Positions 7,100 through 29,721 of a stretch of DNA of 29,721 nucleotides are shown piece after piece. The notes below the pieces were generated by a model. It did no database searches, was not told where the DNA came from, and saw nothing but the letters and a program-made list of their open reading frames with translations. Position 1 is the stretch's first letter. Each line of letters opens with the position of its first letter. The DNA is from a virus. Both the position numbers and the translations under genes were made by a program. Where the stretch lies: IMG/VR virus record IMGVR_UViG_3300045988_159010. The stretch is one strand, 5' to 3'.

Positions 7100-7143
7100 C
7101 TCTTATTATTCTTTTAAATTAATTTTTAAAAGAATAATAAGAG
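7100..7143 (+). terminator. perfect 16-bp AT-rich hairpin (CTCTTATTATTCTTTT / AAAAGAATAATAAGAG, 12-nt loop) just after terL
   Basis: The inverted repeat 7100-7115 / 7128-7143 is perfect. It could be a partial terminator, an RNA-processing site or the boundary of an inserted gene. Confidence 0.45.
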
Positions 7144-7178
7144 GAATTTATTTGTAGATAAGAAAGGAGACTTAATAT

Positions 7179-7535
7179 ATGGATGCCAGTCGTGCGGAAA
7201 TTAAGATTAGAGAAATCTTAGAGGAAGCCGGCCTGAATTTTAAGATGGAATATATATTTCCAGATTTAAAAACACATAATGGTCGTCCTTTACGTTTTGA
7301 TTTTGTCATATTTGATGATGATAATAATATTGATTTTTTAATTGAATATCAAGGGAAATAGCATTATGAAGCTAGTAATAAATTTGGCGGAAAACGTGGA
7401 TTATATCAATAGCAATATAATGATAATCAAAAACGTAGATTCTGTGCTTTACATGATTTACATTTAATAGAAATTCCTTATACAGAAGAAAATTTAATTT
7501 CTTATGATTATATAATGCGAAAAGCTGGATATTAA
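7179..7535 (+). CDS. DUF559/Vsr-like PD-(D/E)xK endonuclease-fold protein (118 aa), possibly a homing-endonuclease-like insert
   Basis: It has an AGAAAGGAG RBS, 2 in-frame TAG and a TAA stop. The motif RFDFVIFDDDNNIDFLIEYQGKQHY...KRRFCALHDLHLIEIPY matches the DUF559 signature (hhDFhh...IEhDGxxH ... R...L...G..hhRh). Confidence 0.5.
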
Positions 7536-7552
7536 TTGAAAGAAGGTGAAGT

Positions 7553-9241: not shown

Positions 9242-9253
9242 GGAGGATTTATA

Positions 9254-10795
9254 GTGAGACATACAAGTGTTAAGTTAGATACTCCTGTTGAGTTTATTAA
9301 TATCACTAAAATCAATCCTTTAATTTCTAAATGTTAGATTAAAGTTTGTTATGTTGGTGATAAACCAAATCGCAATAGAAGTGTTATAACAAAAGAAGTT
9401 GCTAAAGATTTAGCACAAAGTTTACCAGGTAGCCCTATTGTTGGTTATTTTAATGAAGCCAATGGTGATTATGAAGAACATAATCGTATTATTGATATTT
9501 CTAATGGTAAATTTGATATCAAAGATACTACTGTTCCTTATGGTTTTGTAGACTTAGGAGCTAAAGTATGGTTTTAGAAATTTTTAGATGATGGAAAAAA
9601 CGAGCATGAATATTTAATGACTGAAGGCTATATCTGGACAGATATCTATCCAGAAAGTAAACGTATTATTGAAAAAGGTAATAATCAATCTATGGAATTA
9701 GATGATGAAAAAATTAATGCGTATTGGTCGAAAGATAAGAATGGAATGCCCGAATTTTTTATTATAAATGAAGCAATAATTAAGAAACTTTGTATTCTTG
9801 GAGAAGATTGTGAACCTTGCTTCGAAGGAGCTAATATTACTGCACCTACGATGCATTTCTCATTTAGTGATAAATTTAATGAGCAATTATTCTCTATGAT
9901 GAAAGATTTAAAAGAATTATTAGAAGGTAAAGGAGGAACAAAAGTGTTCACAAGATATAGTGTGGAGATTGGTGATTCCATTTGGACTTCTCTTTATTCT
10001 TACATTAAGGGTTTCGGAGCAGGTAATGCAATGATTGAAGAAGTTTGCGAAGACAATGGTAATTTATTTGCTATTGTCAAGGAAGATGATAAGTTCGTTC
10101 GTTTAGATTTTTCTATGGAGAATGATACTTTCACTCCTGGTGAAGTTTCTGAATTAACTGATTATTCTGTTTCTGATAATCCTCAATTCGATCCTGAAAA
10201 AGTTGCAGAATTTGCAAAGAAAAAAAAGGACGAAAAAGATAAAGACAATAAAGAGAATAATGATAATAATAAGGAAGATCCTTCTAAAGATCAGCCAAAA
10301 GATGATGAAAAGAAGGACACTCCCGAAAATAAACCAACTGATACTTCTGATGAAGAAGAAGAACCAACTGAGGATGATGAAGAGAAAAAAAAGAAAAAGA
10401 AAGCTAAGTACTCTTTGGAAGATGTAGTTGAATATGGTTTATTAAAAGACGAGTATACCGCGCTTGAAACTAAATATAATGAATTAGTTGAAAAGCAAAC
10501 ACAACTCGAACAAGAACTTGCTTCTTTAACTCAGTTTAAGACTGAGGCTGAAAGAGAAAAGAAACAAGAAATGATTAATAGTTTCTATATGTTATCTGAT
10601 GATGATAAGAAAGATGTTGTTGCTAATATTGATACTTATTCATTAGATGATATTGAAGCAAAGCTTTCTATTATCTGTGTTCGCAATAAGGTCAATTTCG
10701 ATACTAATGAAAAGAAAGAAAATGACCCACTTACATATAATATTAATAATGATGTAAATGACGATAGCATTCCTGCTTGGATTAAGGCAGTATAG
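9254..10795 (+). CDS. head morphogenesis / scaffold-like protein (513 aa) with a poly-K/E/D low-complexity segment and a C-terminal coiled coil
   Basis: A GTG start follows GGAGG. I verified the frame: 2 TAG near the N-terminus, then an open stretch to the TAA at 10793-10795. The charged KKKKDEKDKDNKENN...EEEEPTEDDEEKKKKKK region and the coiled-coil segment (LETKYNELVEKQTQLEQELASL) fit a scaffold-like role, as does its position after the portal. Confidence 0.6.
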
Positions 10796-10843
10796 GATGT
10801 TGCGAAAACTATGGAATAATAAATTTTTAAGGAGGAAAACCTA

Positions 10844-11620
10844 ATGCTTTTAAAAGATATGCTTAAAGACCTAAGCGGCGTATCTGCTGTTAAGGGCGGC
10901 TACGTTGAATATGGCTATGGTCAGGTTGAGCCTAATCATTTAAGTGCTCAACGCACTGGTCAGATTTATGCTCAATTACCTGCTAACAGAAATATCCAGC
11001 TTCTTGAAAATGGCCAGTTTGTTAAGTATGACTATGCTGCTGGTGAGCTTGGTGAAGTTGATTTCACTGGCAAGGGCGAATGGATGTTAGTTTATAATGA
11101 AATTAAACTTTATCGTGAGGAACAAGCTGATTGCGAATTTGCTATGCGCAAAGATGATTATCAAGCTCGTTATTACAGCCCCTATGATGGCAAGCAGGAA
11201 ATTGGTACACGTCAGGCTCGCTATTTAAATGGTAAGGATGCCGAAGGTAATACTTCTATGACTATTACAGATAGTCAGGGTGTACAACATACTTATGAAT
11301 ATGATGATGTCACTGCTGGTCCTGATATTCGTGAACTCTTCTATGAAGAAGATCCTTTACACTTTGATGGTCCTTATGAGGCCCGTAGAATGCCTGCTGG
11401 CACTAATATGGTTCCTCGTGTTTTCAAGACCAATGTTGGTGATATTTTTACGACTAATACTATTGCCGAAGCTACTCTTGTAGTTGGTGATATTTTAAGT
11501 CCTCGTGCTGCTGATGGTATGCTTTCTAAGACCGGTGATGGCTCTATCCAGTGGTAGGTTGTCAAGGTTTATGAAATGCCTGATCATCAGAAGGGCGTTA
11601 AGATTATGCGAATCGCGTAA
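10844..11620 (+). CDS. head protein (258 aa), TAG-free except one near the C-terminus
   Basis: It has a very strong RBS (TTAAGGAGGAAAACCTAATG) and GC visibly higher than the neighbouring genes. The single TAG at 11555-11557 is followed by 20 more sense codons before the TAA at 11618-11620. Confidence 0.6.
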
Positions 11621-11637
11621 GAAAGGAGAGAAGAAAA

Positions 11638-12774
11638 ATGTTAGATAGAAAAAATCTTGTTCAATTAATGAAGACTGTCGCTAAGGCTGATCCTTCTACT
11701 CCTACTGCTTACAGCTTTAATGGCGAAAGCCTTTCTTATGATGCTCTTAATGAAACTCTCCGCAGAGAATTAAATGAACTTGCTGGAACTTATTCTTTAT
11801 ATCGTGATAATAAGAACCTTATTTTCTCAATGATTGAGGAAACTATTGATGAAGTTCTTCCTAAGAAAGTTGAAGAGCAATATAATCAGTTTGCTGAAGT
11901 TAAGACGTTTAAACAGGGTGACAAGCCTATTTTCCGTAGAAAGTTCAGCAACAATACTCGTGCAAAGCAATTCATCACTCGTGTCGGCCTAGCTGGTATC
12001 TATGAAGTATTCAAGCTTGGTAAGACTGAAGAATGCTTTGAAGTCCGTACAAGTGCTATCGGCGGAGCTGCTCAAATTGGCTTTGAGGAATTCCTTGATG
12101 GCCGTGTCGATTTTGGTGTTGTTACCCAGATCGTCATGGAAGGTATGGATGACCTTATCTATAAAGAAATTGCCGGTGCTTTAAAGGCTTCTGTTAACCA
12201 GTTACCTCCTGCTAACCGTTTAGTTGCTAATGGTTTTGATGAACCCGGTTTTGATAAGTTACTTATGATTGCTTCTGCTTATGGCACTCCTACTATTTAT
12301 TGCACTTATGAATTTGCTGTTCGTATGATTCCGAAGGATGCTTGGCGTTATACTGAAGCTATGAAGAATGAGCTTTGGAACACTGGCCGTCTTGCTTCCT
12401 ATAAGGGCTATAAAGTTGTTATTCTTGAGCAGGGCTTTGAAGATGCTACCAATGAAAAGAAAGTCATTGACCCAGGTTATGCTTGGATTATTCCTACTGG
12501 TGCTGATAGTAAGCCTGTAAAGGTTGCTATGGAAGGCAATACCATTGTTGATGAATATACCAATTATGATCGTAGCCGTGAAATTCAGGTTTATAAGAAA
12601 GTTGGCGTTATTGCTATGTTAGCTAATAACATCTGCTGCTATTGTGATACTGAACTTCTTGGTGATATGAAGACATGGCATCTTGATGGCGTAACTGGTA
12701 AGGTCCGTGACTATGCTGGTCAAATTACTGGTTCTCATGATACTATTGATGGCGGTAACGAAGATAAGCCGTAA
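11638..12774 (+). CDS. major capsid protein candidate (378 aa)
   Basis: It has a GAAAGGAGAG RBS, no TAG codons, and elevated GC with biased codon use, which is the signature of a highly expressed gene. A strong intrinsic terminator follows, and the gene sits at the canonical position after the scaffold-like genes. The function is inferred from position and expression signals. Confidence 0.5.
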   Translation: MLDRKNLVQLMKTVAKADPSTPTAYSFNGESLSYDALNETLRRELNELAGTYSLYRDNKNLIFSMIEETIDEVLPKKVEEQYNQFAEVKTFKQGDKPIFRRKFSNNTRAKQFITRVGLAGIYEVFKLGKTEECFEVRTSAIGGAAQIGFEEFLDGRVDFGVVTQIVMEGMDDLIYKEIAGALKASVNQLPPANRLVANGFDEPGFDKLLMIASAYGTPTIYCTYEFAVRMIPKDAWRYTEAMKNELWNTGRLASYKGYKVVILEQGFEDATNEKKVIDPGYAWIIPTGADSKPVKVAMEGNTIVDEYTNYDRSREIQVYKKVGVIAMLANNICCYCDTELLGDMKTWHLDGVTGKVRDYAGQITGSHDTIDGGNEDKP

Positions 12775-12809
12775 TTGATATTAACTAAAAATTAATATAT
12801 AATATTTTT

Positions 12810-12850
12810 AGGGGAGAATGGGGAAATCCCCTTCTCCCCTATTTTGTTTT
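12810..12850 (+). terminator. intrinsic terminator (AGGGGAGAATGGGGAAATCCCCTTCTCCCCT + ATTTTGTTTT)
   Basis: A GC-rich interrupted stem (AGGGGAGAA/TTCTCCCCT with an inner GGGGA/TCCCC) is followed by a T-rich tract directly after the capsid candidate. Confidence 0.7.
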
Positions 12851-12872
12851 ATGAGTAAAAGGAGAATAAAAA

Positions 12873-13439
12873 ATGAATAAAAAAGTTTTATTAGTTACTA
12901 ATAGAAGTGCTGGAATGGTCGTTTATACTATTCCTGAAGAAGGCATTCGTAGAGAATTCACACCTGGTGAAACTAAAAAAATTCCTTTTGAGGAATTAGA
13001 GAAGCTTGCTTACCTTAGCGGAGGCCGCACCTTAATGGAAAATTTCTTAAAAATTGTAGATACTCAAACTACAGAAGAATTGGGTATTCATACAGAACCT
13101 GAATATTATTTAGATGATGCTGGAGTTATTAAGCTCCTTACTGAGGGAACTCTTGATGAATTCCTTGATTGTCTTGATTTTGCTCCTATTGGAGTTATTG
13201 ATATGATTAAGAGCTATGCTGTATCTCTTCCTATGAGTGATTATAATAAGCGTAAAGCTCTTAAGGATAAGACTGGATTTGACCTTGATAGAGCATTAGC
13301 TAATAAGGAAGCTGAAGCTGCGGAGGATGAACAGATTACTCCAAAAGCTCCTGAACGTAGAGTGAAGACTGAAACTAAGCCTACAACGCCTCCTGGTCGT
13401 AGAACTGCTCCTCGTTATAATGTTGTAAAAGAAGGTTAA
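12873..13439 (+). CDS. hypothetical structural protein (188 aa), TAG-free
   Basis: Intact ORF with an AAAGGAGAAT RBS. The C-terminus is Pro/Thr/Arg-rich. Confidence 0.65.
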   Translation: MNKKVLLVTNRSAGMVVYTIPEEGIRREFTPGETKKIPFEELEKLAYLSGGRTLMENFLKIVDTQTTEELGIHTEPEYYLDDAGVIKLLTEGTLDEFLDCLDFAPIGVIDMIKSYAVSLPMSDYNKRKALKDKTGFDLDRALANKEAEAAEDEQITPKAPERRVKTETKPTTPPGRRTAPRYNVVKEG

Positions 13440-13461
13440 TTATAAATAAGGAGGGTTTTAT

Positions 13462-14073
13462 ATGACATATTTTTATAAAGTTTATGAACGTTTTTTAGGC
13501 AAAGTAACAGATGATATGTATTTAGAACTTACTCCTCGTGATACATTTTTAGATTTACGCCAATTACTTGTTGATAGTATTCCTGGATTTGAATTTCCGC
13601 GTAAACGATTAGATTACGTTTTAGTAGATGAAGATGCTCCTGATTTTATAAAAGGAGAGATTGATGGCGGAGATATTGATATACCATTAGGTGGAGATTT
13701 GTTTGAAGAAGTAGCTGGTAGTAATATTGATATAGATAATGCTTTTTAGGAGATATTTTCTGAGGAAAATACCTCCTATTTTAATGCCGATTTAGATGAT
13801 GAAGAAATTAATATCTTAGCTTTAATCATGGTTGAAGCTTGGGTGGAACGTCAATTGGCATCTATCGAAGTAACAAGAATGAAATATTCTGGAACAGATT
13901 TTAAATTTACTTCATAGGCAAATCATATGTAGAAATTGTTATCATTGAGAACAGAAGTAAGACGTCAGGCATTTCATATGTAGAGATTATATAAACGTCG
14001 TAAAACTGATGATGATGGATATATTAAATCCAATTGGTCTGTTCTAAGGGAGGTAAGCGCCCTTGATGACTAA
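13462..14073 (+). CDS. hypothetical head-tail joining region protein (203 aa)
   Basis: It has a TAAGGAGGG RBS. I verified the frame: 4 in-frame TAG and a TAA at 14071-14073. Confidence 0.6.
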
Positions 14074-14359
14074 ATATAATTTTGATATAGACAATAATTT
14101 AATTAATACTAATATTAATAGACTCACTAATTAGATATGGAAATTAATTCCTATGAGAGAAAATGAAGAAGATTGGTTATCTTAGTTAAATACTGTAATT
14201 ATTGAATTAACTGGTCTTGGGGAAATTTTTAATGATAGTTAGTATTTAATTCTTTTAAGTAAATTAGAAGGACTAAAAAATATTGAAATTGAATTTCCTA
14301 TTTATAGAAAGACAGTGTTTGAAGCTATTACTTTATTAAGGGGGCTTCATATTGAATAA
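14066..14359 (+). CDS. hypothetical small protein (97 aa)
   Basis: It overlaps the upstream gene by 8 nt. I verified the frame: 3 TAG and a TAA at 14357-14359. Confidence 0.5.
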
Positions 14360-15347
14360 AAATGAATATTTAGATGCAATGTATAACCGTATTCCAAAAG
14401 CCAATATGCTTACAAGATATTTATATGGCGATGGAGTAACAGGACAACAAGAACGAATGATAAGAGATAAACGTAAAACATTAAGTAGAGCTTTACTTTA
14501 TTCTTATCAAGCTGCCTTGGTAAAAAAATTATATGATGATAAAGATACTATTGAACGTCGTGCATTAATCAACCCTGATAAAACAAAATAGGATTATGAT
14601 GAAAAAATTATTTCAATTGGTTTTGAAAGTAATTTTAAAACTGGGGATATTTTTTAGTGGTTAGGTACAAATACTTATTGGTTAATTTATTTACAGGATT
14701 TAACTGAATTAGCTTATTTTCGTGGCAATATAAGACGTTGTTCTTATGAAATTGCTTGGGAAGATGAAAATAAAAATTATCATAAAACTTATGTAGCTTT
14801 GCGTGGTCCTGTTGAAACTAAAATTAATTACATCCAAAAGCATGAAATTAGTATAGATACACCTAATCATTCTTTAAATATATTATTACCTTATAATGAT
14901 GATAATGTAAAATTATGCTAGCGTTATAATAAATTTTATTTGTAGAATGACCCTAATAAAACATGTTGGCGTATTGAAGCTATTGATTTGTATTCTACTC
15001 CTGGAATAATTGAAATTAATGCTGTCGAGTATTATTCTAATGAAACTGCTGATGATATTGATAATGGCATTGTCAACGGTTTAATATAGCCGGTTCAAGA
15101 TCCTAATTCAGGTAAGGAGAATGGTATTATTGGTGATACTTTTATTAAGCCAAAAGTGGTATATGAATATAAATATAATGGAATCAAATCTGGTAAATGG
15201 ACTTGGGATAAAAAACTACCATTAACAGTTAAAGTAAACGAAGAAACAAATACTTTAAAATTACGATGGGAAACTACTTATTGTGGTTAGTTTGATTTGT
15301 TCTATGGGCCAGAATGTAAAACCATTGTAGTTGAATCTTTATTTTAA
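14352..15347 (+). CDS. hypothetical structural protein (331 aa)
   Basis: A TTG start follows AAGGGGG, with an alternative ATG at 14379. I verified the frame: 7 TAG and a TAA at 15345-15347. Confidence 0.55.
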
Positions 15348-15368
15348 AGATGAAGGAGAAATCGGAGA

Positions 15369-15959
15369 ATGAAAATTGATAATGTAAAAAATCCAGAGTC
15401 AGCATTTTTAGCCCAAGAAAAAGATATGAGAATCATAGTTGATCGTATGGCCGCGAATCAACGTTTGCGTAAATTACTTTATTATACTACTCCTGATGCA
15501 TTAAGATTGCCAGAAGTAAGTGATTAGAATTTTGTAAAAATGTTCGGTAAAAATATAAGGAATTTACCAAAATTATATATAGATAAAGATGTTTTAAATT
15601 ATATTGTTATTAGTTTTGATAACTTTGCTCCTAATGGAGACAATCCTGAATTTAGGGATAATACTATTGAATTTGATATTGTTTGTCATTATGATTAGTG
15701 GCAATTAGCTGATTCATTTTAGTTAAGACCTTATAGAATCGCTGCCGAACTTGATAGTATGTTAGATAAAAAACATTTAACTGGAATTGGGCAACTTAAT
15801 TTCATCGGAGCATAGCAAATTATATTAACTGATGAATTTGCTGGACTTTGTTTATTATATGATACAATACACGGAGGAGAAGATAAAAAATATATGCCAA
15901 ATCCTGCTGATGAACAAATGTTTATCGAGGATTATTTTAAAATGCCTAAGATGAATTAA
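15369..15959 (+). CDS. hypothetical structural protein (196 aa)
   Basis: It has a GAAGGAGAAATCGGAGA RBS. I verified the frame: 4 TAG and a TAA at 15957-15959. Confidence 0.55.
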
Positions 15960-16693
15960 TGGATTATAAACTTAGTTTAATGTGCGGAACAGATTTACCT
16001 GTTCCAGAAATTCCATTAACCCTCCATTAGCCTAAGATAAAGGAAATAGCATTAATTGGCGAAAAAGAATTTTTTACTGGTGCTTAGTGTCTTTGTATTA
16101 ATAAAAATAGTATAACAAATCAGGACAAGAATGATTTGGATACTACTACCAATTTTTAGATATTTATGATGGTAATGCTATAGAAAGATAATAATGAACG
16201 GCGTAAAGCTGCGCAATAGGTTCTATCATTACTATTCCCAAATTCAAAGTCTACATTTACTCCTAGATCTATTGTTATTTAGTATAATGAGAGTGACATT
16301 TAGATTAATATTGATGATGATAACTTTGAATTATTTTAGTCGGTAGCAAGACAAATTTTTTGTTTTGATACTAATAAAAATGGGCAAGATAATTATAATC
16401 CTGCTAATAAGAAAGCTCAAGAAATAGCTAATAAATTAATGAAAGGGCGTCAAAGGGTCGCTGAACTTAAAGGGGTTACCGATTCAAGCATTTTGAGCCA
16501 ATACGTTTCTACATTGACTATTGGATTAGATTCAATGTCGTTAGAAGATTGTATGAATTTAACATTGTATTAGTTATACGATTTAATAGAAAGATTTTCT
16601 CTTTATACTAATTGGGATATTGATGTAAAGAGTAGATTAGCAGGAGCTAAGTCAGATAAAAAACCTGACAATTGGATGAAAAACATTCATTAA
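15959..16693 (+). CDS. hypothetical structural protein (244 aa)
   Basis: Its ATG overlaps the upstream TAA. I verified the frame: 11 TAG and a TAA at 16691-16693. Confidence 0.55.
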
Positions 16694-16772
16694 CTTTGTA
16701 TAAATCGCTTTACTAATTTTTGTAGCGAGTTATATAAATAAAATTTAAATTTTATTAAGGAGGAAATAACCT

Positions 16773-17864
16773 ATGAAATTTGGTGTTCGTGAAATATGCG
16801 ATGTCGTATTAAAAGCTCGTGCTCCTATGAAGGTTGGTAATAAAGTTTTCTATGCGAACGAACCAGTTCTTTATTTCGATACATTAAAAACTTCTAGCCT
16901 TGAAGGTGCTTCTACGACCGTATATGCACAAGGCGGACGCGGCAATGCTCGTTTAGTAGCTTGGGACGGTGACCGTACTTTAACATTCACTATGGAAGAT
17001 GCTCTTATTTCTGCAGAAGGTTTCATGATTCTTGCTGGAGCTGGCCTTATTGATGCTTCTAAACAGAATACAATTAAGCAACATGTAACTGAAAAGACTA
17101 CTGCTGTGGCTCTCTCTGAAGATAAGGATAGTGTACAAATTTTTATTAAAAATTTACCATATGAACAAATTGATACTACCACGGGTGCTCATAAAGGTGA
17201 ATATTATATTTATGCTATGCGTGTTGACAATGATGAACCAGTAACTGAGCCTTATCTTCCTACAGTTATTCGTCAAACTGAGGCGGGGGCAGTTGCGAAA
17301 CCTCAAAAGTTCTATTTTGATGAAACTGAAATGAAGTATAAGACTTGTACTGATGCAGAAGCTGATACTAAGGCTAAAGCTGGTACTTAGATTTATTATG
17401 GTCTTTAGATTAAGGAAATTACTTCTGCTTATAAGATTGTTGATGAAGCTGAAGCTAATGCAGTACATAAATTAGAATTATTTAAAGATTCTGTTGTTCT
17501 TCTTGATTATTATATTGAGAAGGCTAGCAATGCTCGTCAAATTGAAATTACCGCTGAATCTTTTGGTGGCAACTTCTATCTTGAAGCTTCTACCTTATTC
17601 CGTACTCAGGATGGTGTTGATCTTCCTGCCGAATTTATAATTCCTAACTGCAAGATTCAGTCTAACTTTACTTTCAGTATGGCTGCTACTGGCGATCCTG
17701 CAACTTTCACTTTCACACTTGATGCTTTCCCAGGAACTACTCGTTTCAATCCTACTAAGAAAGTATTGGCTGCTGTTCAGGTCATTGAAGATATTGATAA
17801 TGATAGTGTCTATCGTACTCAAACTATCCATGATCCGATGCATGACAGCTATTTTGATATTTAA
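16773..17864 (+). CDS. major tail protein candidate (363 aa)
   Basis: It has a very strong RBS (TTAAGGAGGAAATAACCTATG) and only 2 TAG codons (17388, 17406). GC is elevated. A strong terminator follows after a small downstream ORF. The function is inferred from position and expression signals. Confidence 0.5.
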
Positions 17865-17866
17865 TT

Positions 17867-18031
17867 ATGATTATTAGCTCTAATGCTCCACGACCTGTTA
17901 AAGCATCTGAAGTAGAAAAAGTTATAGTTAAAAAATCAAAAAAAGAAAATAAAAATTCTCAAGAAAAAGAGAATAAAATTCCTCTTACAGAGGATGAACT
18001 TATTGATAAGATTATTAAAGGAGAGGGTTAA
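17867..18031 (+). CDS. small Lys-rich ORF (54 aa)
   Basis: The ATG lies 2 nt after the upstream TAA. There is no TAG, and the TAA at 18029-18031 is embedded in the terminator hairpin. Confidence 0.4.
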   Translation: MIISSNAPRPVKASEVEKVIVKKSKKENKNSQEKENKIPLTEDELIDKIIKGEG

Positions 18032-18049
18032 TCCCTCTCCTTTTTTTTT
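18020..18049 (+). terminator. intrinsic terminator (GGAGAGGG-TTAAT-CCCTCTCC followed by T9)
   Basis: A perfect 8-bp GC-rich stem (18020-18027 / 18033-40) is followed by a 9-T run. Confidence 0.8.
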
Positions 18050-18075
18050 ATTATGTGAAAAAGGAGATATAATAT

Positions 18076-19395
18076 ATGGCAAAATTAACAAATGCCTAGA
18101 AAAATTAGTTAGTTTATTATAAACAAAAAGGAGTTTCTTATAAAAATGAAGTAAATACTCCTACTTATTTAAGTAGTCTTTTAGAAGTATATAGAGCTGC
18201 TGCTCGACCAAATGATACAATTGCTAATAAAGAAGTTTAGGATGCTAAATTATTAGAAAAAGTTTTAAATGGAATAAAGTAGATTCAAAATAATTATACT
18301 AAAAAAATGTCTTTTTCTACTGAATCTTTAATAGAGATTGTTTAGGATTAGGCTTTAGCTGAATTACTTAATTAGTTATATACGGTAAATCCTGGATTAT
18401 TTATTGGAGGAGGTTTAATTAAAAAAGGAGCAAATAGCTATGAACGTGGTGCCTTATTAGAGAATTTTATGAATGAATTTATTACTACTATTGACTATAC
18501 TTTTTAGAATATGGAAATGCCTTATGGTCCTTTACCGTAGACTCATCGGTCTGGCCAATTAGTTGATAATATTAATATGAAAAATTTAATTACTAATATT
18601 GGTGGAGAGTTTATAGATAGCACTACAAAAACTGCAATAAATAATTTGTCTCGGTTTATTTATAAAGTTGGATAGGAAAAAAAAGATTCAGGTAATACTA
18701 CAACTGAACGTCGAAAAAATAATTTAGAAGCTACTACTATTTATACTCAAGTTAAAGAAAATGGTCGAGTTGGAGCTATTTAGGGCAAATAGATAAAAGC
18801 TGATAACACTGGTTTAAATTATAGTATTTCAATTACTGCTACAGCGACACTGTTAAATCAAGTAGTTAATGCCTTATCGATGGCTACATTCAGCGATAAA
18901 AATTATTTATCAACAGATTTTATAGGTTTAGGTAAAACTAATCCTTATCGTGTTTTTTTAACTGTGGCTGATGGAGATACAGGTTATAAATTATATAGAT
19001 ATGCTCGTATGTTAAATTGTATGGCAAAGCATTCTAAATTAGCAGAACATAATGATGTGCCTAAAATGTTTTTTAGAATTAGAGCTATTTATGAATTGAC
19101 TGGTGCTAAACAACAAGTTGGAAATACTAAGTATGCTTATTAGAGTGTAATGGCTAATTTTATTAATGATATTGGTCGTACTAAATTTTTAGTTATTAAT
19201 AATCCTAAAAAGCAAGGTTTTTTAAAAGTTTTATCAACAGCTAAATTAGCAGAAGATATAGAAATGAATTTATATTTTAATAAAAAACAAGGTTCTAGAA
19301 GTATTTTAGAAAATGATGAAAGAAGAATGTCTATGGAGCAAGCTCTATATGGTCCTATTAGTATGAATTTCAGTAAAATTTTTGAAGATTAGTAA
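18076..19395 (+). CDS. hypothetical tail-region protein (439 aa)
   Basis: It has an AAGGAG RBS. I verified the frame: about 13 in-frame TAG. It ends ...GAA GAT TAG TAA, that is, a TAG directly followed by a TAA. Confidence 0.55.
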
Positions 19396-19405
19396 AAAAA
19401 ATTTT

Positions 19406-19434
19406 TTGACTTTGGAAATTTTTTTTGTTATAAT
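19406..19434 (+). promoter_or_regulatory. sigma70/sigmaA promoter with extended -10 (TTGACT-N17-TGtTATAAT), a near-duplicate of the one at 2985
   Basis: TTGACT lies at 19406-19411 and TATAAT at 19429-19434. It differs from the 29-mer at 2985-3013 at only 2 positions. Confidence 0.6.
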
Positions 19435-19511
19435 ATATTTATAAAGGATAAAAATTAAAAAATTTGTTTCTGACAAAATTTTTAAAATATAAAGTTAAAG
19501 GAAGTGAGAAT

Positions 19512-20039
19512 GTGGCGAAAATAGCTTTTACAAAACTCTCTCTCCAGAAAAATTCAGAAATAAGAAATTGGCAATATAATGATCAAATTATTGAAGTAAA
19601 ATAGTATCTTCCAATAAAAGAGAGAATGGATATTGCTTAGTCGGTCATTCAACAAGTCATTGATTTTAATAATGAATTTTTGAATGAATTTGCTTTCCAT
19701 ATGTATATGGATTTAGCAATAGTATTTAATTATACAAATTTATCTTTTACTGATAAACAGAAAGAAGATTTGTATAAACTTTATGATTTACTTGTTGGTT
19801 CAAGGTTTATAAAAGAGTTAAAGAAACAAGTAAATTGTAATCAAATTGATGATTTAGAAGTCTATACTTATGAAATGCTTAATGGATATTATAAATATCA
19901 TAATAGTGTTTATGGGATTATGGATGCTATGAATCAGAATTATTCTAATTTAAATTTAGATGTTAATGAATTACAAGATAAGATTTCTAATCCTGAAAGT
20001 CTATCTTTAGTAAAAGATATTTTAACCAAGATGGGTTAA
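19512..20039 (+). CDS. possible tail assembly chaperone (175 aa; minimal standard-code version 19680-20039)
   Basis: A GTG start follows AAAGGAAGTGAG. There are 2 in-frame TAG and no TAA/TGA across the 56 codons upstream of the ATG at 19680. The gene sits immediately upstream of the tape measure and is bounded by its own promoter and terminator. The function is inferred from position only. Confidence 0.45.
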
Positions 20040-20081
20040 AATATCATAATTGATTTCTAATTTAAATAGGAATATTAAAAG

Positions 20082-20113
20082 GCGAGAGGCTTTGTTCCTC
20101 TCGCTTTTTCTTT
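20082..20113 (+). terminator. intrinsic terminator (GCGAGAGG-CTTTGTT-CCTCTCGC followed by TTTTTCTTT)
   Basis: A perfect 8-bp stem (20082-20089 / 20097-20104) is followed by a T-run. Confidence 0.8.
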
Positions 20114-20151
20114 GTATATAGAAATTTATAATGAGAGAAAGGAGCTATTTT

Positions 20152-23100
20152 ATGGCTAATAACAGTGCTAATTATAATGTTAATATGCGATTTACAGCTG
20201 ATACAGGTCAGGCTAAATAGCAATTACGAGATTTACAAAGTTCATTAGATACTTTAATGAATTAGATAGCAACAAAAAATATTAAATTTTTTGATGTTAA
20301 TGCCACTAAAAAAGAAATAGATGAAGCCTCGGCAGCAGTTTAGGAGTTAAAAATTGCTTTAGATTAGGCGACTAATGTTAATACTGGACGTTTAGATTTA
20401 TCAAAATTTTCAAAGAGTTTAAGTTAGAGTGGCTATACTCTTTAGGATTTTGCTACACATTTAGAGAATCTAGGTCCAACAGGTGATAAAGCATTTGTTG
20501 CGTTAGCATAGTCTGTTATTAATGCTGAAGTTCCTTTAAAAAGAACTAATGCTTTATTAGATAATTTTAAAAAAACATTAGCTAATACAGCCAAATGGCA
20601 AATTTCATCTAATTTAATGCATGGAGTATAGGGTTCTTTATAGAAAGCTTATTATTATGCAAAAGATTTAGATAAATCATTAAACGATATTCGTATAGTT
20701 ACTGGATAGAGTAGCGATCAAATGGCTTAGTTTGCTGAAAAGGCAAATAAGGCTGCTCAAGCATTAAGTACAACTACTACTAATTATACTAATGCTTCTT
20801 TAATTTATTATCAATAGGGTTTAAGTGATAAAGAAGTTGCTGATCGTACTGAAGTTACTATTAAAATGGCGAATGCAGCAGGTGAAAGTGCTTCTAAAGT
20901 ATCCGATTAGTTAACTGCTATTTGGAATAACTTCTATGATGGGAGTAAATCTCTTGAGTATTATGCAGATGTAATGACTAAACTTGGTGCATATACTGCT
21001 TCTAGTACTGATGAAATCTCAGAAGGTGTATAGAAATTCGCATCTGTTGCTAATACTATTGGTCTTAGTTATGAATATGCTACATCTGCATTAGCTACAT
21101 TAACTGCTAAAACACGTGAAAGTGCGAACACAGTAGGTAATAGCCTTAAAACTTTATTCGCTCGTATTTAGGGTTTGACTCTCGGAGAAACTCTTGAAGA
21201 TGGTACTGATTTAAATAAATATTCTAAAGCCCTTGAAAAAGTTGGTATTAGTATTAAAGACCAATAGGGTGAGTTAAAAGATATGAATACTATCCTTGAT
21301 GAAATGATGAATAAGTGGGATAGTTTAAGTCGTGCTGAACAAGTGGCTCTTGCATAGACTGTTGGTGGTGTTCGTCAATATACTCAATTAGTTAATCTTA
21401 TGGAAAATAAAGATTATTTTAAAGAGTTAGTTGGAGTGGCTAAAAATTCTGAAGGTACTTTACAAGAACAAGCTGATATTTATGCTGAAAGTTGGGAAGC
21501 TTCTAAGAAGCGAGTACAAGCTTCTCTGGAAGAAATTTATAAGCAATTAGTTAATGATAAATTTTTTATTGGATTAAATGATACATTAAGTGATACATTA
21601 AATATTACAAGTAAATTAATTGATTCATTAGGTGGATTACCTGGCGTATTAAGTGTCATTTCTACTTTAATGTTAAAGAGTTTCGGTCCTGATATTGTAA
21701 ATAACATGCAGCGTATGGCTTCTAACTTGTTTATTGATAGCGGAGCTGCTGAAAATTAGGCTGCGGTTATGAAAAAAGCGATGATTTAGACATTACAATC
21801 TTTCTCGCCTGAATCTAAAATGGAATTATCAGATTAGGGTTCTGTCACATTAGAAACTACTACAATGATTAATGCAGCTTAGGCATCTTATGATTTATAG
21901 ATAGCTAATAGTCAATTAAATGAAACAGATAAATTAAGACTTTAGACTTTACTAAAAATTTCTTAGGTTTATGGAGATATCGCTGTATAGGCTAAAAGAA
22001 GTATTGAAGTCCAGCAGCAGTAGACTTAGAATAATTTACGAGATGCAAGAAATTAGATTTTTCTTACTACTAATGAAAATTTTGGTGGAGAAACTGGCGT
22101 AAAATATTTTGATAAAAATTATAAAGCTGGACAAAAATTAATTGATAGTTTTTATAATAATAAGGTTTTAAAATAGTTAAATTCTTAGAAATTTGATAAT
22201 AGTGATTCTTATTAGAATTTTTTGGCTAAATTTGATAATATTAAAGGATTAAATACTGATTAGAGATTTGACAAATTAAATCAATTATTAAATAAAGCTA
22301 AAGGAGCTTCTAATAAGCCAAGTAATATTTAGTCTCGATATAGAAATTAGATTATAGAAGAAATAAATAATTTAAAAGATGTTAATGTAGTTTTAGATAA
22401 ATATGTAAACAATAAAGCTAGTGCCGATGGAGCAACTAGAAAATAGATTGAAGCATTACGTCAATGTTTAAATGGGTATGTAAAAGAAAAAGAAGCTTTA
22501 ATACAAAGTAATAATGCCAATAAAAAATATACAGACTCAATAAATGATTTCGAGAAAACTTTGGCAAAAAGTCAAGGAGCCGTTATGACTTTTTCTTAGG
22601 GATTGGTTTCGGGCGCGTAGGGAATCTCTTAGTTGGCTATTGGTATTAATAGTATCCATGGTGCTATATAGGCTTTAAATAGCGAAGATTTAACCTTTGG
22701 TGAAAAAGTATTTTAGATGACTACATCGCTATCTATAGCGATTCCTTCTATTATAAATGGTTTTACTAATTTACAAAAAAGTATATAGAGCATTAATAGT
22801 AGTAAAGGATTAATTGGAACAAATATTTTATAGTTAGTTACTGGGTTAAATGAAATTAAAGAGGCAAATTTAGGCGCTGAATTATAGAAATTAAGTGCAG
22901 CCAGCAATACTTCTGGTTTAAGGTTTAAAGCTTTAAAAGCTATGACTGATGCTTATAATACTAGCATGGAAGGAGCTAAAGTTGGAGCTAATGGATTAAC
23001 TAAAGCTATGGCTGAATAGGCGGCTGGTACTGCAGCTTTAAAGGCTGGTATTAAAGCTGTGGCTGGATCTTTAGGCATTTATATAGCCATCGCTGCGGCG

Positions 23101-26100
23101 ATAGCTGCAATTATTGCAGTTATAGTCCATTTAAATGAAGTAGCAAAAACTAAAACTTTAGAATCTTAGTTAGCTCGTTCTGAAGAGGCTGCTGCAAATT
23201 TTGAAAAACAATTAGAAAAAACAAAATCTAAAGCTGAAGAATTAAAAAATGTTTTTAATAATTATAAAAATATTAAAAAATCTTTAGATGAATGTACTAT
23301 AGGAACAGAAGAATGGCGAAAGAAACTTCAAGAGACTAATGAAACAGCACTAGAAATATTAAAAAATTATCCAGAATTAAAAAATATTGAAGGCGCTTGG
23401 GGTAAAAAAGACACAGGAGAAATTTGGATTGATGAATCGGCGCTAAAGGGTTTACAATCTGAATATGATAATAAAATTTTATCTCAGTCTTATAATTTAG
23501 CTAGACAAAATTAGAATAGTAATGAACTTAAAAATGCTATAGCTTGGAAAAATAATTTTAATGATATAACTTTATCTTATGGAGCTACTTTTAATGATTT
23601 AGAAGGTTCTTATCGTCCTGAAAAAGATGAAAGAACTTTTAATGCTTTAGAATATATTAGAAATAATTTCTAGAATTATAAAGGTTATTCGGATGATTTA
23701 ATTCTTAAGGATATTTACTCTTATTTAAATAAAGAGGGATATAATAATATTGAAGGTTAGGCCTATTAGGAAAAATTAACTTAGTTTATAAATGAAATTA
23801 ATCCTACTTTATAGTCTTTGATTTCTACCATAGAAGAAAATACAGATGCTACTTTGCAAGCGGAGCAAGAAAGTGTTGTCCAATAGAAATTAGGCAAAAC
23901 TAATATGTCTTCTCAAGAAGTTAAATTAACCACAGAAGCTTATAACAATGCCATTGAAGATAAAATAGCTGAAATGAAAAAAGCAACTAGCATTTGGGAT
24001 GGCAAATGGAATGGAACAATAACTTATGATGGACTAGAAATTGGTACTCATGGTGAAAATGCTCGTAACAGCCAATAGGTTAAAGATTTATGGGATGTAT
24101 ATTTAAAATCATAGGGTATTGATATAAATGATAGTGATTATAGACTAAATTAGCAAAATTCTGTAAAAGGTAAAGGACAAGATAGATATTTTGTTTATGG
24201 CCAAGACTAGAAAGTTTCTTTTGAAGAAGTTATTTAGGCAGTTGCTTAGTATGAAGTGGATTAGGGTAATTTCTTAACTGAATTAAATTAGGCAGCTACA
24301 AATTTTTTAACTAATCTTGGAAAAATTCAATACACTGATGAAACTAAGTAGAAAATTGAATCTGGAGGAACTTTAGGAAAAGGTTTAAGCAGTTTTATTG
24401 GTAATAAGGATTTAACTGAATTAACTTAGGAAGAAATAGATAATTTAGGAGAATTAACTGAGGATACTTTAAAAGAGCGTGTAGCTGCTGCTATGGGATT
24501 TGATTATGCTAAAGCTACTAAAGAATAGTTAGCTGAATTAGATGATTAGCTAATAGCTATTTATGGGGCTGTTGGAGTTGATTCCGGAGAAGAATTTGTT
24601 GAATAGTTTAATACAGCTATTATAAATTATGGAAAAGAAACAGAGAAAATTGCTAATTCATTTTATGGTAAATGGGCTACAGCAGAAAATCTAAATTCAT
24701 TTACTTTAGAGGTACAAAAAAAATTAAAATCTACTTTTGTAGATGTTTTTAGAGTAAGTGGAGAAGAAGGAATTGCTGTCTTTAAAGAAATAATATCTAA
24801 ATACGGATCTGATTTAACTCCAGAATTATTAGATTTAATTGGAGATTTTGATTGGACTTAGAGTGGAGCTATTGATAATTTTATATCAGCTTTAGAAGAT
24901 TTAGGTATTTTAACTGATGATAATACTGAAGCCTGGAAAAGATTTTCTAGTCAAATGGCTGAAGCAGCTAATAATTTACCGATAGATAAATTAACTAATT
25001 TACGAGATATTTTAGAAGATATATACAAATTATTAGGTAAAGATGTTGGTTCAATTTTTTCTTAGGAAGATATTGATAAATTAACATTAGGCGGATATGA
25101 TATTGAAGGGCATTATGCTCAAGTTGGTTCAGACGAATATGTTAAAACTAGAGATTATACTACTGAAGAAAAAAATAAAGCTTATGAACAACAAATTCAA
25201 ACTGCTAAGAAAAAAAATGAAATAATTTATGGTGCTAATGATTATAATTAGGCCTAGGTACAATCTAAAGTAGATAGTTGGGGAAAATATGGTGACAAGT
25301 ACATTTCAGGAGAATGGGATAACTTAAGTTCTTCTTATGTAAAGAGTTATATTGACAGCATTGGAGGTATTGAAAATGCTGCTACTATAACTGGATGGGA
25401 TTAGGATAATTTTTCTGATGAATATTTAAATAGTATAACTTCTTAGGAACGTGCTGAAATTGTTGATGCAATAGTAAAGGGAATTAATAGTGTTTATAAT
25501 GGACAAACTGATACTGGTGTTATAACTACTTCTCATTTATATAATAGTTCAGACTCTATAAATGAAATGACTTAGATGGAAGGGTTCCGTGATGAAGAGG
25601 GATCTGTATCAGATTCTGGAATTGAAGCTATTAGTGGAAAATTAGCCGGGTCAGAGGAAGGTTTAGAATTATTACATAAATATTAGGATGAAATAAAAAA
25701 TGTCACTAAAGGTACTGAAGAATGGGATAAAATAACTAATCAATTCATTAAAGATAGTCAAGGTTTAGAATATAAAGAATAGGCAAAAGAATTAGGAAAT
25801 TATAATGATAAATTAAAAGAAGCAAAAAAAGCTGGCGAAGATTATGAAGAAGAACTAGGTAATGTAAGAAAATAGCTCAATAAAATGCTTGATATCGAGG
25901 TAGATGATGATTTCATTGAAGAATATCAAGATTAGATTGATAAAATGCTTAGTGGTAAGACATTAGAAGAACGCCAAAGTGCCGCTAATACAATTAAATT
26001 CTAGGCTGAATTAGATAAAGAAGATATTGAATCTAAAATACCTGATGAACTTTAGAATGAAATTATGCCTATGTTATAGAATAATTTGCCTAAATTAGAA

Positions 26101-29100
26101 CTAGACGCTGAGGGAAAAATTGTAATGACTGGCGATAGTGGCCAAGCTGTAGCTGCCATCGGATAGGTAATAGCAGCTTTATAGGCTGCCGGTGTTCCTG
26201 CTGAAAGTATAGCTGAAATTTTAAGAAGCGTTTTGGGTACTGATATAACTATTAGCGGAGATGGTATAGAATAGTTTGCTGAATTAGCCAAAGCTCTAAC
26301 TTCAGGAGATTTAGAAGCTATTGCCAAGTGGTCTGAAACTTATAATGATGGTAAAGATCTTTTAAATTTAAGTGGTTCTGGCCGTACGGCTAATGTTACT
26401 CCTAATTATGCTTATGAAAATGGTGGTTCTAAAGGCGGCGGAGGCGGTGGAGGTAAATCTACTAAATCTGCTAATGATATTGGCAAAGAAATTCAAGATG
26501 AGAAATTAAAAACTTATGAAAAGAAACGTGAATTATTAGAAGCTAAACGTGATGGAGCTAATCCAGAAGATGCTGCTAAATATATTCAAGAAGAAATTGA
26601 TTTACTTGAAGAAGAACAAGATATTCTTGAAGATTAGATTAAATCTTGGAAAAAGTTATTAAAAGTTAAAGTAGAAGAATTTAATAAAGATCACCCAGAG
26701 TTTGAAATAAAACTTACTGATGATGGTGAAATTGCCAATGCATCTGAATTATGGGGCAAAGTTTGGGCGCAATATCAAAAAAATCTTGAAGATGGTATGA
26801 GTGAAGAAGACCTAAATGAATGGTTTACTAAAATTAAAGACAGTCTTGATGGTCCTATGGGTATTCAATAGAATATTGATGAAAATGTTGCTCTCATTGC
26901 TTAGAAAGAAAAAGAAGCTGCTGAACTTGAACTTGAAGCTATTACAAAATAGATTGACTGGAAAGTTAAGTAGATTGATTTTTAGATTAAACGTCTTAAC
27001 TATTATCAAGAAAAACTTCTTAAATAGGCTCATGGTAATAAATAGACTATTGAAGCAATGCTTGAAGGATTTGCTTACCAAGAGCAAGAAATGCTATAGC
27101 TCTTTGATAAAGGCGCCACATTACGCTAGGGCATTGATTAGTTAAATGCTGCGAAAGCTAAATATCCAGGTTATGAGTAGATGTTTGATGAACAAATACT
27201 TGAATACCAAAGTGATTTAATTGATGTTAATGAGGCTATTCTAGACTTACGTAATGATATTGAAGATTTGGTCTAGAACGTTTTAGATTTGGCACTTGAT
27301 GAAATTGATAAGTAGATAGAACGTCTTGATACTTATACATCAATGCTTGACCATCTTAATAATATTATTGATTTATCTGGTCGTTCAATGCTTGATATGG
27401 GATTAAAAACTTAGATTGGTGCTACTAAAGTAGAAACAATGTTAGGTAAAATGAAATCCTTAAAAGGTCAAATGGATGGTTTAACTAAAGCTACTAAAGA
27501 AGCATAGGCCGCGCTTGCTGATCGTTAGGCTGATGGAGATACATCTTCCGTAAAATTCTGGGAAAACCAAGTTGAAGTATTGAAACAAGAAACTGAAAAA
27601 GCTTCTGATGAATTTTTAGCTTCTTGGGAAGAAACTCTTGAAGCAGCTCAGGATTTATTTGAAATGCGTGTTGAAATGGCAGTTAATATATTAAGTAATG
27701 CTTTATCACCGTTTGAAACTCTTGAAGATTTCCAAGATAAATATGAAAAGGCAAAAACTATTAATGAGCAATACCTTGATGATGCTGACCGTTTATATGA
27801 GTTGAATAAATTAAATCGTTAGCTAAATTTATAGCTAGCTGATGCTAATGACCTTTTAGCTAAACAAAAACTTAGAGACATTTAGCAAGAGATTCACGAT
27901 CTTTAGGCCGATGGCGTCCAGATGAGCCAGTATGACCTTGAATACTTATAGAAAAAATATGATCTACAGCTTGCTGAGATCGCTCTTATGGAGCAGTAGA
28001 ATTCAAAAACTTCAATGCGTTTAGTGCGTGATGCCGCGGGTAATTGGACTTATGCTTATGATGCAGATGAAGAAAAAATTGAAGACGCCACATAGAAATA
28101 TGAAGATGCGGTTCATGAATTAGGTAAGTTAAGTAAGGATTATATTAATGATGTAAGTGAATAGTTAATTTAGAATCAAATTGATTTTAAAGAAGCCTTA
28201 CAAGATCTTGATAAAAACTCTGCGGATTATTCAAATCAGCTATTATCATTGCAAGAGTATTATGTTGAAAGACAAAGATATTTACTTGATGAATTAAATA
28301 AAGGTGTTGTAAATAGTGGATTAACATTCCATGATACTCTCTACGGCCAAATGACTGATTTGTATGATTATAATGATGCTTATATGTTATTTGTTAATAA
28401 TTCTAATACTACAATTAGTGAATTACAAACCAATTATAAAGATTGGCAAAAAGTTGTTGAAGCAGCAATGAACGTTGCTGGTACATCTTGGGAAACTTTC
28501 GGTTCTGATATGGGCGGCACTCTTGATAGTCTTGAAGAACATATTCAAAAATTATGTGATGAAATTGAAGAACTTGTTAATGTATTAATGGGCTATATTT
28601 CTTAGTCTATTGGAATGGTTCTTGATTGGGAATAGAAATATTCTAAGCGAACTGATGAAGAATTAGCTAAAAATGAATAGTATATTGATGGTAACTTTGG
28701 TAGTAGTGGTAGCGGCGGATTAACTTATGATATTGGTGTTGATTATAGTGCTGCTATAATTTCTTTAAGTAAAAATGGTGGTACTTATACAGATGAAAGT
28801 GGCCGTACTTGGACTACTGATGACATCAAAACTTTGAAAGATATCCGTAATTTAAAATTATCTGATATGGAATAGGAAGGTTCATAGATTTTAAAGAATG
28901 GTTCTTCTACTGATTATTGGTCTGAAGAAGAAAAGAAAGAAATTACAACTAATAAAAATGCAGAATGGTTAGATAAAGTTTTAGGAAATGGTGCAGCTTC
29001 TGGTGCCTATACAGGCAATTGGGCTAAAGGACAAGGTTTCGGACCTGATAATGGTAGAATTATTAAAGTTCATCCTAAAGAATTAATTCTTAACCAAAAA

Positions 29101-29376
29101 GATACTTCTAATATACTTCGTGCAGTTGATATTGTTCGTAATATGAATGATTGGGTTGATAAACAAGTACAATCAATGATTAATTTTGGATAGATAAAAT
29201 TAGGTAATTTGATTGATAAAACTACTCCACCTGTTTATGAAACTTAGCCAATTAAGCAAGAAGTTACTATTCAAGCAGACTTCCCAGGAGTTACTGATCA
29301 TTATGAAATTGAAGAAGCATTGTCTAATCTTAGTAATAATGCGGCTCAATATATAAGTGCAAATAAATCTAAATGA
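20152..29376 (+). CDS. tail tape measure protein, TP901-family core (about 3074 aa) with about 115 in-frame TAG codons
   Basis: It has a GAAAGGAG RBS. I read every codon of frame 1 from 20152 and found no TAA/TGA until the TGA at 29374-29376. The region 20700-21760 matches the conserved TP901-type tape measure core (...AEKANKAAQALSTTTTNYTNASLIYY..., ...LTAKTRESANTVGNSLKTLFARI..., ...GELKDMNTILDEMMNKWDSLSRAEQVALA...). There is a hydrophobic transmembrane-like segment (GIYIAIAAAIAAIIAVIVHL, about 23070-23140), extensive coiled-coil repeats and a Gly run (GGSKGGGGGGGK, about 26425). Confidence 0.85.
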
Positions 29377-29402
29377 GGAGGATTAATTTCCTCCTCATTT
29401 TT
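29374..29402 (+). terminator. hairpin/terminator overlapping the tape measure stop (TGAGGAGG-ATTAATTT-CCTCCTCA followed by TTTTT)
   Basis: A perfect 8-bp stem is followed by T5. It is probably a leaky terminator or an RNA structure between the tape measure and the distal tail genes. Confidence 0.55.
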
Positions 29403-29422
29403 GAGGAGAGAAAGGAGTTAAT

Positions 29423-29721
29423 ATGGCTTATAATAGAAAAGAAGAATATTTAGCTACTATAAAAAAGCCAAAAGAAATAACAGATGCCTTATTAGAGACT
29501 ATAGATTATATAGCACGGGCACGTGATGCTGAATTATCATTTGATAAAACTATAATTGCTGAAGTTATAAGTCTAAACGATGCCAGTACTGGAGAATATT
29601 TTGTTGAATATCAAAAAGGGAAATTTCGTGCTTATGCCCCAACTACATTAACTTATGTATATTCTAAAGGAACTAATGTATATGTAAAAGTACCAGGCGG
29701 TGATTTTACTCAAAAAAAAAC
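29423..29721 (+). CDS. tail protein, N-terminal part only (distal tail protein position; runs off the right edge)
   Basis: It has a GAAAGGAG RBS and an open frame to the end of the window (MAYNRKEEYLATIKKPKEITDALLETIDYIARARDAELSFDKTIIAEV...). The call rests on its position immediately after the tape measure. Confidence 0.5.
   Translation, partial: MAYNRKEEYLATIKKPKEITDALLETIDYIARARDAELSFDKTIIAEVISLNDASTGEYFVEYQKGKFRAYAPTTLTYVYSKGTNVYVKVPGGDFTQKK

Follow-up and report, generated by a model that had tools for sequence, protein, structure and literature searches.

A giant tape measure gene with 115 in-frame TAG codons in a gut phage of the wider phAss-1 group

The phAss-1 group, also proposed as 'Phassvirus', has tape measure proteins (TMPs) of 3,149, 3,150, and 3,209 amino acids (aa) under translation table 15; three tRNA-Sup(CTA) genes are reported for it, and some of its relatives, Enterococcus EF1 among them, use the standard code (Babkin et al. 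2023, PMC10607447). The stretch considered here, IMGVR_UViG_3300045988_159010 (29,721 nt), is referred to as the window, and all coordinates refer to it. Its positions 20152-29376 are very likely one TMP gene of a ~189-kb gut phage that has an SPbeta-like / phAss-1-like virion module and reads TAG as glutamine (Gln) in its late genes. The gene is real and very large, it is of a kind already published for the phAss-1 group, and it is typical of its clade.

Reading frame and the amber codon

With TAG as sense, the frame runs for 9,225 nt, or 3,075 codons, from ATG to TGA and holds 115 TAG and no TAA, with TGA at the end only. An earlier reading of the letters and open reading frames (ORFs) of the window, called here the sequence-only reading, had described an uninterrupted frame with about 115 suppressible codons and about 3074 aa; both statements are confirmed, with 115 TAG in 3,074 sense codons. 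From base composition, the probability that 3,074 codons contain neither TAA nor TGA is ~10^-86. The first TAG is codon 23, and the nearest in-frame TAA on the 5' side is at 20047.

20152..29376, + strand: TMP coding sequence, 3,074 aa, 115 TAG read as Gln, TGA stop
20139..20144, + strand: ribosome-binding site AAGGAG by sequence, 7 nt 5' of the TMP ATG
29374..29376, + strand: TGA stop of the TMP, the only non-TAA stop among the complete + strand genes tallied

The stops of 18 complete + strand genes of the window were tallied, and 17 are TAA, one is TGA (TMP), and none is TAG. The TGA stop of the TMP is kept in the heavily recoded relatives L004-L008 and L053, while the relatives checked with other codes, L027 (standard), L038 (moderately recoded), and L011 (lightly recoded), end in TAA. 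These handles denote loci from a scan of IMG/VR, which gave 53 related loci; 50 complete relatives were used for TMP lengths.

The protein aligns collinearly with single proteins of other phages. By BLASTP, three blocks match the TMP of Enterococcus phage VRE9_3 in the same order (aa 1-546 to 1-550, 2351-2805 to 1886-2319, and 2950-3068 to 2556-2670). Residues 9-1781 align at 31% identity to the standard-code relative L027, in which the TMP has 3,239 aa and no TAG; residues 1819-3074 match a single frame of L008 (65% identity), and residues 2064-3067 align to L011. Against L004-L006, the closest relatives, the alignment spans ~2,950 residues at 67-68% identity and shows no break.

It could be argued that the frame merely strings together several distinct genes, owing to accidental TAG read-through or to faulty assembly, given that code 11 splits the region into >100 pieces, that GenBank has the Phass-1 equivalent as 17 small coding sequences, and that different parts of the protein best match different relatives. 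However, a frame of this length would hardly occur by chance, both ends of the protein, jointly nearly its whole length, are collinear with single ORFs of standard-code phages, and neither internal repeats nor a break against L004-L006 were found. An artefact is also difficult to reconcile with independent ENA assemblies. Contig ERZ5855809 scaffold_9 (189,494 bp), assembled from a Peruvian gut metagenome, matches window 1-11200 with 100% identity, and two further contigs of ~189 kb match it with 97.5%. Gut metagenomes from Peru, SRR1761717 and relatives, are the source samples. Since the single-ORF relatives are collinear and internal repeats are absent, chance fusion of several genes is excluded. 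The alternative as a whole is effectively refuted, its probability being very small, and the single tape measure gene, for which the sequence-only reading had named fused genes as the refuting outcome, stands.

The reading of TAG as Gln is derived from several comparisons. ORFs of at least 100 aa in the window sum to 4,896 aa under code 11 vs 12,130 aa with TAG as sense, and TGA as sense gave no comparable ORF gain across the window. When the window TMP was aligned to 11 standard-code relatives and Gln was counted per column cell, Gln occupied 24.6% of the relatives' cells in TAG columns, 22.5% in CAA/CAG columns, and 5.4% in other columns. Besides TAG itself, the commonest partner of TAG in close relatives is CAA in most comparisons. 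Total Gln (TAG+CAA+CAG) is ~190-230 in orthologous TMPs with 0 to 115 TAG, and as TAG rises it is chiefly CAA that falls. An origin of TAG mainly via CAG-to-TAG was rejected since CAA, not CAG, drops from standard-code to recoded TMPs. In addition, the gene lengths of the window with TAG as sense equal the ENA gene calls on the contig identical to window 1-11200. Overall, these comparisons of sequence indicate that the phage decodes TAG as Gln in its late genes.

The relatives differ widely in code. Their TMPs have 0, 6, 21-39, 56-60, or 88-115 TAG; those free of TAG are L027-L034 (except L031 with 6 TAG), L039, L042, L046, and L052. With total Gln roughly constant, this gradation of TAG load resembles successive natural stages in the capture of a stop codon. 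Other members of the clade, L035, L036, L037, L047, and L051 (TMP at ~9509-18181), have 14-21 in-frame TGA, no TAG, and 7-11 TGG. In L035, L036, and L047, the TGA columns are tryptophan in 13-38% of standard-code cells vs 0.3-0.6% in the background. Therefore, one clade, with the same giant TMP throughout, has members of three kinds: standard-code, TAG-recoded, and TGA-recoded.

Domains of the protein and the expected tail

The TP901-family core claimed by the sequence-only reading is confirmed, since two tape measure families match above their cut-offs: TIGR01760 at aa 161-497 (nt 20632-21642; 124.1 bits vs 28.8) and PF10145 at aa 199-406 (E=1e-27; 97.6 bits vs 33.2). Two tape-measure PHROGs (profiles of ~2,650 positions) also match aa 10-546. 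The transmembrane-like segment and the poly-Gly linker that the same reading had described are likewise present, and the whole protein can be divided as follows.

20152..21789, + strand: conserved N-terminal TMP region, aa 1-546, which holds the TIGR01760 and PF10145 matches and the BLASTP matches to the VRE9_3 TMP and to Phass-1
23044..23151, + strand: hydrophobic transmembrane-like segment, aa 965-1000 (AGIKAVAGSLGIYIAIAAAIAAIIAVIVHL...), 19-aa Kyte-Doolittle mean up to 2.87
23152..26421, + strand: variable middle region, aa 1001-2090, the first ~780 aa homologous to standard-code relatives, e.g. L027
26422..26454, + strand: Gly-rich linker GGSKGGGGGGG, aa 2091-2101, with a similar linker in homologue P0004
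26455..28689, + strand: C-terminal predicted helical region, aa 2102-2846, from an AlphaFold2 (AF2) model of homologue P0007 and from conservation
28690..29016, + strand: variable C-proximal slot, aa 2847-2955, with a short Gly/Ser linker and a ~95-aa module to which no function is assigned
29017..29373, + strand: conserved C-terminal end, aa 2956-3074, with motifs GAYTG.W, HPKELILN..DT.NIL, and FPGVTDHYEIEEA...AAQY, common to the whole clade

No domain was found in the middle region (aa 1001-2090) by Pfam, NCBIfam, PHROGs, PDB sequence, and PDB profile searches. A protein-database search with the same residues gave no match, and low-complexity words had probably saturated its candidate list; a PDB sequence search with the full TMP and with a profile of the middle region gave no meaningful match. 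The TMP is mosaic, since a standard-code lineage is nearest to it over the first 1,780 aa and a different lineage over the last 1,250 aa, which suggests intragenic recombination across phages with different codes.

The C-terminal helical region is conserved in Phass-1 from ~aa 2260 and in VRE9_3 from ~aa 2351, and ENA homologues match it at 89-97% identity. P0007 is a 90%-identical homologue of the last ~730 aa of the window TMP; in its AF2 model, which is of low confidence, about 85% is predicted as helix, with long helices up to the C-terminal module. Foldseek of this model against PDB gave generic helical proteins only (E>0.1). The ~95-aa module in the C-proximal slot is modelled with a predicted local distance difference test score (pLDDT) of 65-87. 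In L007, L053, P0004, and P0008, the homologous module is followed by an NlpC/P60 domain (~140 aa, E=2e-27), and homology between the modules of the window and of the relatives has an hhalign probability of 94% (E=1.3e-7). Where they match the C-terminal third of the window TMP, P0004 has 89% identity to it and P0008 has 97%. The NlpC/P60 domain is thus present or absent among otherwise related TMPs, and the window has the version without the peptidase. The sequence-only reading had proposed that peptidase or lysozyme domains be sought in the C-terminal third; relatives have NlpC/P60 at the equivalent site, whereas in the window TMP no hydrolase domain (lysozyme, transglycosylase, or peptidase) was found in Pfam, NCBIfam, or PHROGs.

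The comparison of length with related contigs, also proposed there, shows that the TMPs of the 50 relatives have 2,763-3,268 aa, with a median of ~2,970. An origin of the length by internal duplication was rejected since internal repeats are absent. Known ratios of tail to protein are 0.141 nm per residue in Tsamsa (TMP of 3,123 aa, tail of 440 nm; PMC3903500), 0.158 nm in PMBT24 (1,508 aa, 238 nm; PMC11035940), and 0.16 nm in P23-45 (5,002 aa, 800 nm; bioRxiv 10.1101/2022.12.01.518664). By analogy with Tsamsa and PMBT24, at 0.141-0.158 nm per residue, a tail of ~420-490 nm would be expected. For the 2,673-aa TMP of the EF1/VRE9 Enterococcus phages the predicted length is ~380-420 nm, and the tails of both would be non-contractile. 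The earlier estimate of ~450 nm lies within this range; however, its description as extraordinarily long is overstated, since such a tail is long yet normal for the clade and no record, given the 50 relatives and the precedents of Tsamsa and P23-45.

From what is established for siphovirus TMPs, a possible mode of action can be described as follows. A few copies of a mostly helical TMP would fill the lumen of the tail tube and set the length of the tail. The conserved C-terminal ~120 aa would sit at the tail tip, and by analogy aa 2956-3074 may be regarded as the tip-proximal end. The hydrophobic segment and the C-proximal module might act in envelope penetration.

TAG load and alternative readings

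The sequence-only reading had given the TMP the highest TAG density. It is the highest, but only marginally so, with 3.74 per 100 codons vs 3.69 for gene 15959-16693. As a share of Gln codons, TAG makes up 115/208 (0.55) in the TMP vs 78/166 (0.47) in the other minor late genes (Fisher p=0.12), and it reaches 61% in the terminase (TerL), 58% in gene 18076, and 56% in gene 15959. The Gln content of the TMP is 6.8%, and TAG positions along it follow the distribution of Gln codons (Kolmogorov-Smirnov (KS) p=0.17). The best reading of the 115 TAG is the product of length, Gln content, and a TAG preference common to low-copy late genes. A different pattern appears in five genes, at 9617-13439 and 16773-17864, that are presumed to encode abundant virion proteins and are listed here with TAG per Gln codons.

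11638..12774, + strand: major capsid gene, phrog_4088, 49% identical to Phass-1 and 40% identical to Enterococcus EF1-group phages; 0/11
Gene 12873: 0/2
16773..17864, + strand: tail tube gene, phrog_2729, the orthologue of which on an ENA contig carries Pfam YomU_Tube; 2/14
Gene 9617: 1/10
Gene 10844: 1/15

Pooled, these genes have TAG at 4/52 Gln codons vs 193/374 in all others (p=3.5e-10), for a set of 'abundant' genes that was, to the detriment of the comparison, picked after the data had been seen, the split then being replicated in relatives. The same split recurs in the orthologues of three independent groups of relatives, one recoded heavily, one moderately, and one lightly.

If p is the read-through efficiency per codon, the computed yield of full-length TMP is p^115, falling from 31% for p=0.99 to 0.3% for p=0.95. 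Therefore, the dependence of the TMP on efficient suppression is real, and the TMP is the product most sensitive to the efficiency of suppression. In this respect the sequence-only reading was correct, since the full-length product requires reading through all 115 TAG. This sensitivity emerges from the change of code throughout the phage and is no gene-specific device. The yield also sets a lower bound on suppression in vivo, as read-through below ~99% per codon would leave little full-length TMP.

The same reading had gone further and proposed a built-in translational timer. It is very unlikely that the TAG load of this gene was selected as a gate through which tails are completed only at near-perfect suppression and assembly is late. 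The steep fall of the yield between 0.99 and 0.95 would suit such a gate, as would the first TAG at codon 23, before which nothing useful could be made in the absence of suppression, and a tip-binding C-terminus, which by analogy with other siphoviruses would come after all 115 TAG; yet the TAG share of the TMP is not above that of the other minor late genes, TerL and gene 18076 included. The minus-strand genes at the start of the window are without in-frame TAG, as an early/late model expects, and a timing role has been published by Borges et al. (bioRxiv 10.1101/2021.08.26.457843), there as a general and untested hypothesis for recoded phages that is not specific to the TMP. In moderately and lightly recoded relatives, however, the TAG share of the TMP (0.31 and 0.15) is below that of most neighbouring minor genes, TAG positions in the window TMP track its Gln codons, and the same TMP of ~3,000 aa is made free of TAG in relatives with the standard code or with TGA recoding. 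Thus, the timer is not upheld. A joint proposal, that the TMP is an ultrasensitive gate with its tip-binding C-terminus made last, and that the graded clade reflects stepwise codon capture under selection that keeps TAG out of high-copy virion genes and tolerates or exploits it in low-copy ones, is unlikely; it leans on other siphoviruses for the role of the C-terminus. By the same analogy, truncated products would be inert and would not give short tails, since the C-terminus is made after all TAG are read.

The other question is whether much of the protein is cargo, that is, folded domains such as the RNA polymerase fused to the TMP of P23-45 or embedded hydrolases, so that the tail is well below ~450 nm. 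Helix formers are scarcer and aromatic residues more frequent in aa 1100-1800, a folded ~95-aa module is predicted near the C-terminus with NlpC/P60 at that place in close relatives, and P23-45 shows that giant TMPs can hold enzymes (bioRxiv 10.1101/2022.12.01.518664). Outside the TMP core, however, no Pfam, NCBIfam, PHROG, or PDB-sequence match was found with the single sequence or with a profile, and the distantly related TMP of Tsamsa, which is of the same size, goes with a measured tail of 440 nm. Although the sequences of the 50 relatives have turned over extensively, their TMP lengths stay within +/-10%, a pattern that selection on length itself would be expected to give. It is therefore quite unlikely that cargo takes up much of the protein.

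Some observations weigh against a single, mostly ruler-like TMP of a TAG-decoding siphovirus. Parts of aa ~1000-2100 are low in helix formers and, therefore, some of the length may not be ruler, and the mean pLDDT of the AF2 model of P0007 is only 53.6. A literature search on the EF1/VRE9 Enterococcus phages found no electron microscopy, and EF1 is listed as 'Myoviridae' in one table, which gives no data for it. Neither a suppressor tRNA nor a release-factor gene was found in the window or in the ~9 kb that precede it; tRNA scans found none there or in the 21-kb loci of relatives, with ~40 kb of the ~189-kb genome scanned. The decoding machinery is assumed by analogy with relatives, Phass-1 having tRNA-Sup-CTA.

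Neighbouring genes and comparison with known systems

The tube-like gene at 16773-17864 is followed by two genes and then by the TMP gene. In VRE9_3, 'tail protein' genes follow the TMP, and on the orthologous ENA contig YomU_Tube precedes the TMP and three genes of >1,000 aa come after it. Precomputed Pfam matches give YonG_N and YonD_N on the contig identical to window 1-11200, and YomU_Tube on L062 (83-94% identical) in the orthologue of the tube gene. Therefore, the virion module is SPbeta-like, which fits a siphovirus, and on these gene matches the phage is most likely a siphovirus. The long-tailed phage of the sequence-only reading agrees with the TMP gene together with an SPbeta-like / phAss-1-like module. 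Pfam searches of ten neighbouring proteins gave sub-threshold DUF2726 only, and a PDB sequence search with the tube-like protein and a 439-aa protein gave no meaningful match.

Hairpins of the terminator type stand on both sides of the TMP gene.

20077..20109, + strand: terminator-like hairpin with a 13-bp stem and a T-run, in the gap that separates the TMP gene from the 137-aa gene upstream, by consensus scan
29375..29393, + strand: terminator-like hairpin directly 3' of the TMP stop, by consensus scan

Judging from its sequence, the hairpin at 20077..20109 may function as a terminator. Another lies 3' of the tube gene at 18017-18043, and 9 terminator-like hairpins were observed in 16500-29721 vs 3.7 +/- 2.0 in shuffles. 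Hairpins after the tube gene and around the TMP may attenuate transcription and set the stoichiometry of tube to TMP.

At the start of the window (1-2726), the minus strand has five small genes without in-frame TAG, in a block that points away from the recoded late module, the start of which is near 2793; GC is 0.44-0.48 in 183-1200 vs ~0.31 elsewhere, and on the ENA contig a long run of small genes goes on past the window start. One 66-aa gene, AbrB/MraZ-like (PF02381, E=2e-5; 1921-2121, - strand), ends at TAG under code 11, and with TAG as Gln it is 9 residues longer, to TAA, the ENA call being 75 aa. Therefore, the early phase, with the standard code, and the late phase, with suppression, could yield different products of this gene. 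Rfam scans of the window at the gathering threshold and of 1-2300 at E<=1 gave nothing credible.

Standard-code gene callers shatter the TMP gene, which makes it a clean and extreme example for annotation. In the deposited Phass-1 record OQ749652.1 (L002), the 3,149-aa TMP at 5591-13630 is given as 17 'hypothetical protein' coding sequences despite the table 15 re-annotation in the paper. Recognising the TMP fixes the morphology (long-tailed, SPbeta-like) and the code of a ~189-kb phage found in several human samples. The 50 orthologous giant TMPs, with standard code, graded TAG, or TGA, form a natural series for the study of stop-codon capture and of codon choice vs expression, and this comparative set is a more useful product than the single gene.

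Among known systems, Bacillus phage vB_BanS-Tsamsa (168 kb) is likewise a giant siphovirus with a TMP of the same size; unlike the window phage, it uses the standard code, has a Bacillus host, and is temperate. The Bacillus siphoviruses PBC2, Thrax1, Thrax5, and Sophrita show distant homology in the capsid and in the TMP core, only the core of the TMP being alignable; they are taken to be relatives of Tsamsa, which itself lies outside the compared records. The Enterococcus phages VRE9_1-4, EF1, EF5, and H1 share the PHROG order 4088, 3853, 29637, 31155, 6123, 4051, 2729, TMP, and both ends of their TMP (phrog_34405) are collinear homologues of the window TMP. However, their TMP has 2,673 aa (400 shorter) with the standard code, no TAG, and ~23-27% identity, and they have been cultured on Enterococcus.

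YomI of SPbeta is a TMP with an embedded cell-wall hydrolase and is annotated as transglycosylase/TMP. The window phage resembles this type in its SPbeta-like virion module and in the NlpC/P60 near the C-terminus of close relatives, whereas its own TMP is without a detectable hydrolase domain. As in the recoded gut phages of Borges et al. (bioRxiv 10.1101/2021.08.26.457843), TAG-to-Gln recoding is concentrated in late and structural genes, and clades mix standard-code, TAG-recoded, and TGA-recoded members. Their emphasis is on lysis genes; here, in contrast, it is the capsid and tube genes that avoid TAG, while the minor virion genes use it for about half of Gln.

In Phass-1 (OQ749652, 'Caudoviricetes code 15 clade' at NCBI), the equivalent open frame is 3,155 codons long and includes 110 TAG. 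Like the window phage, Phass-1 is a human-gut phage that reads TAG as Gln, with ~110 TAG in the TMP and an essentially TAG-free capsid gene, and the two TMPs are homologous in the N-terminal core and in the C-terminal third (window aa 2260-3071 to 2278-3148). The two phages do not match at the nucleotide level (neither megablast with window 9000-29721 nor blastn with 1-2800 found anything in a phage collection), the capsid proteins are only 49% identical, the gene order around the TMP is not the same, and the genome is ~189 kb vs 136 kb in Phass-1. The members of 'Phassvirus', phAss-1, ctckW2, and ct6IQ4, share 80-86% nucleotide identity and synteny, which the window phage does not share with them; judged by these alignments, it belongs not to the proposed genus but to the wider phAss-1 group.

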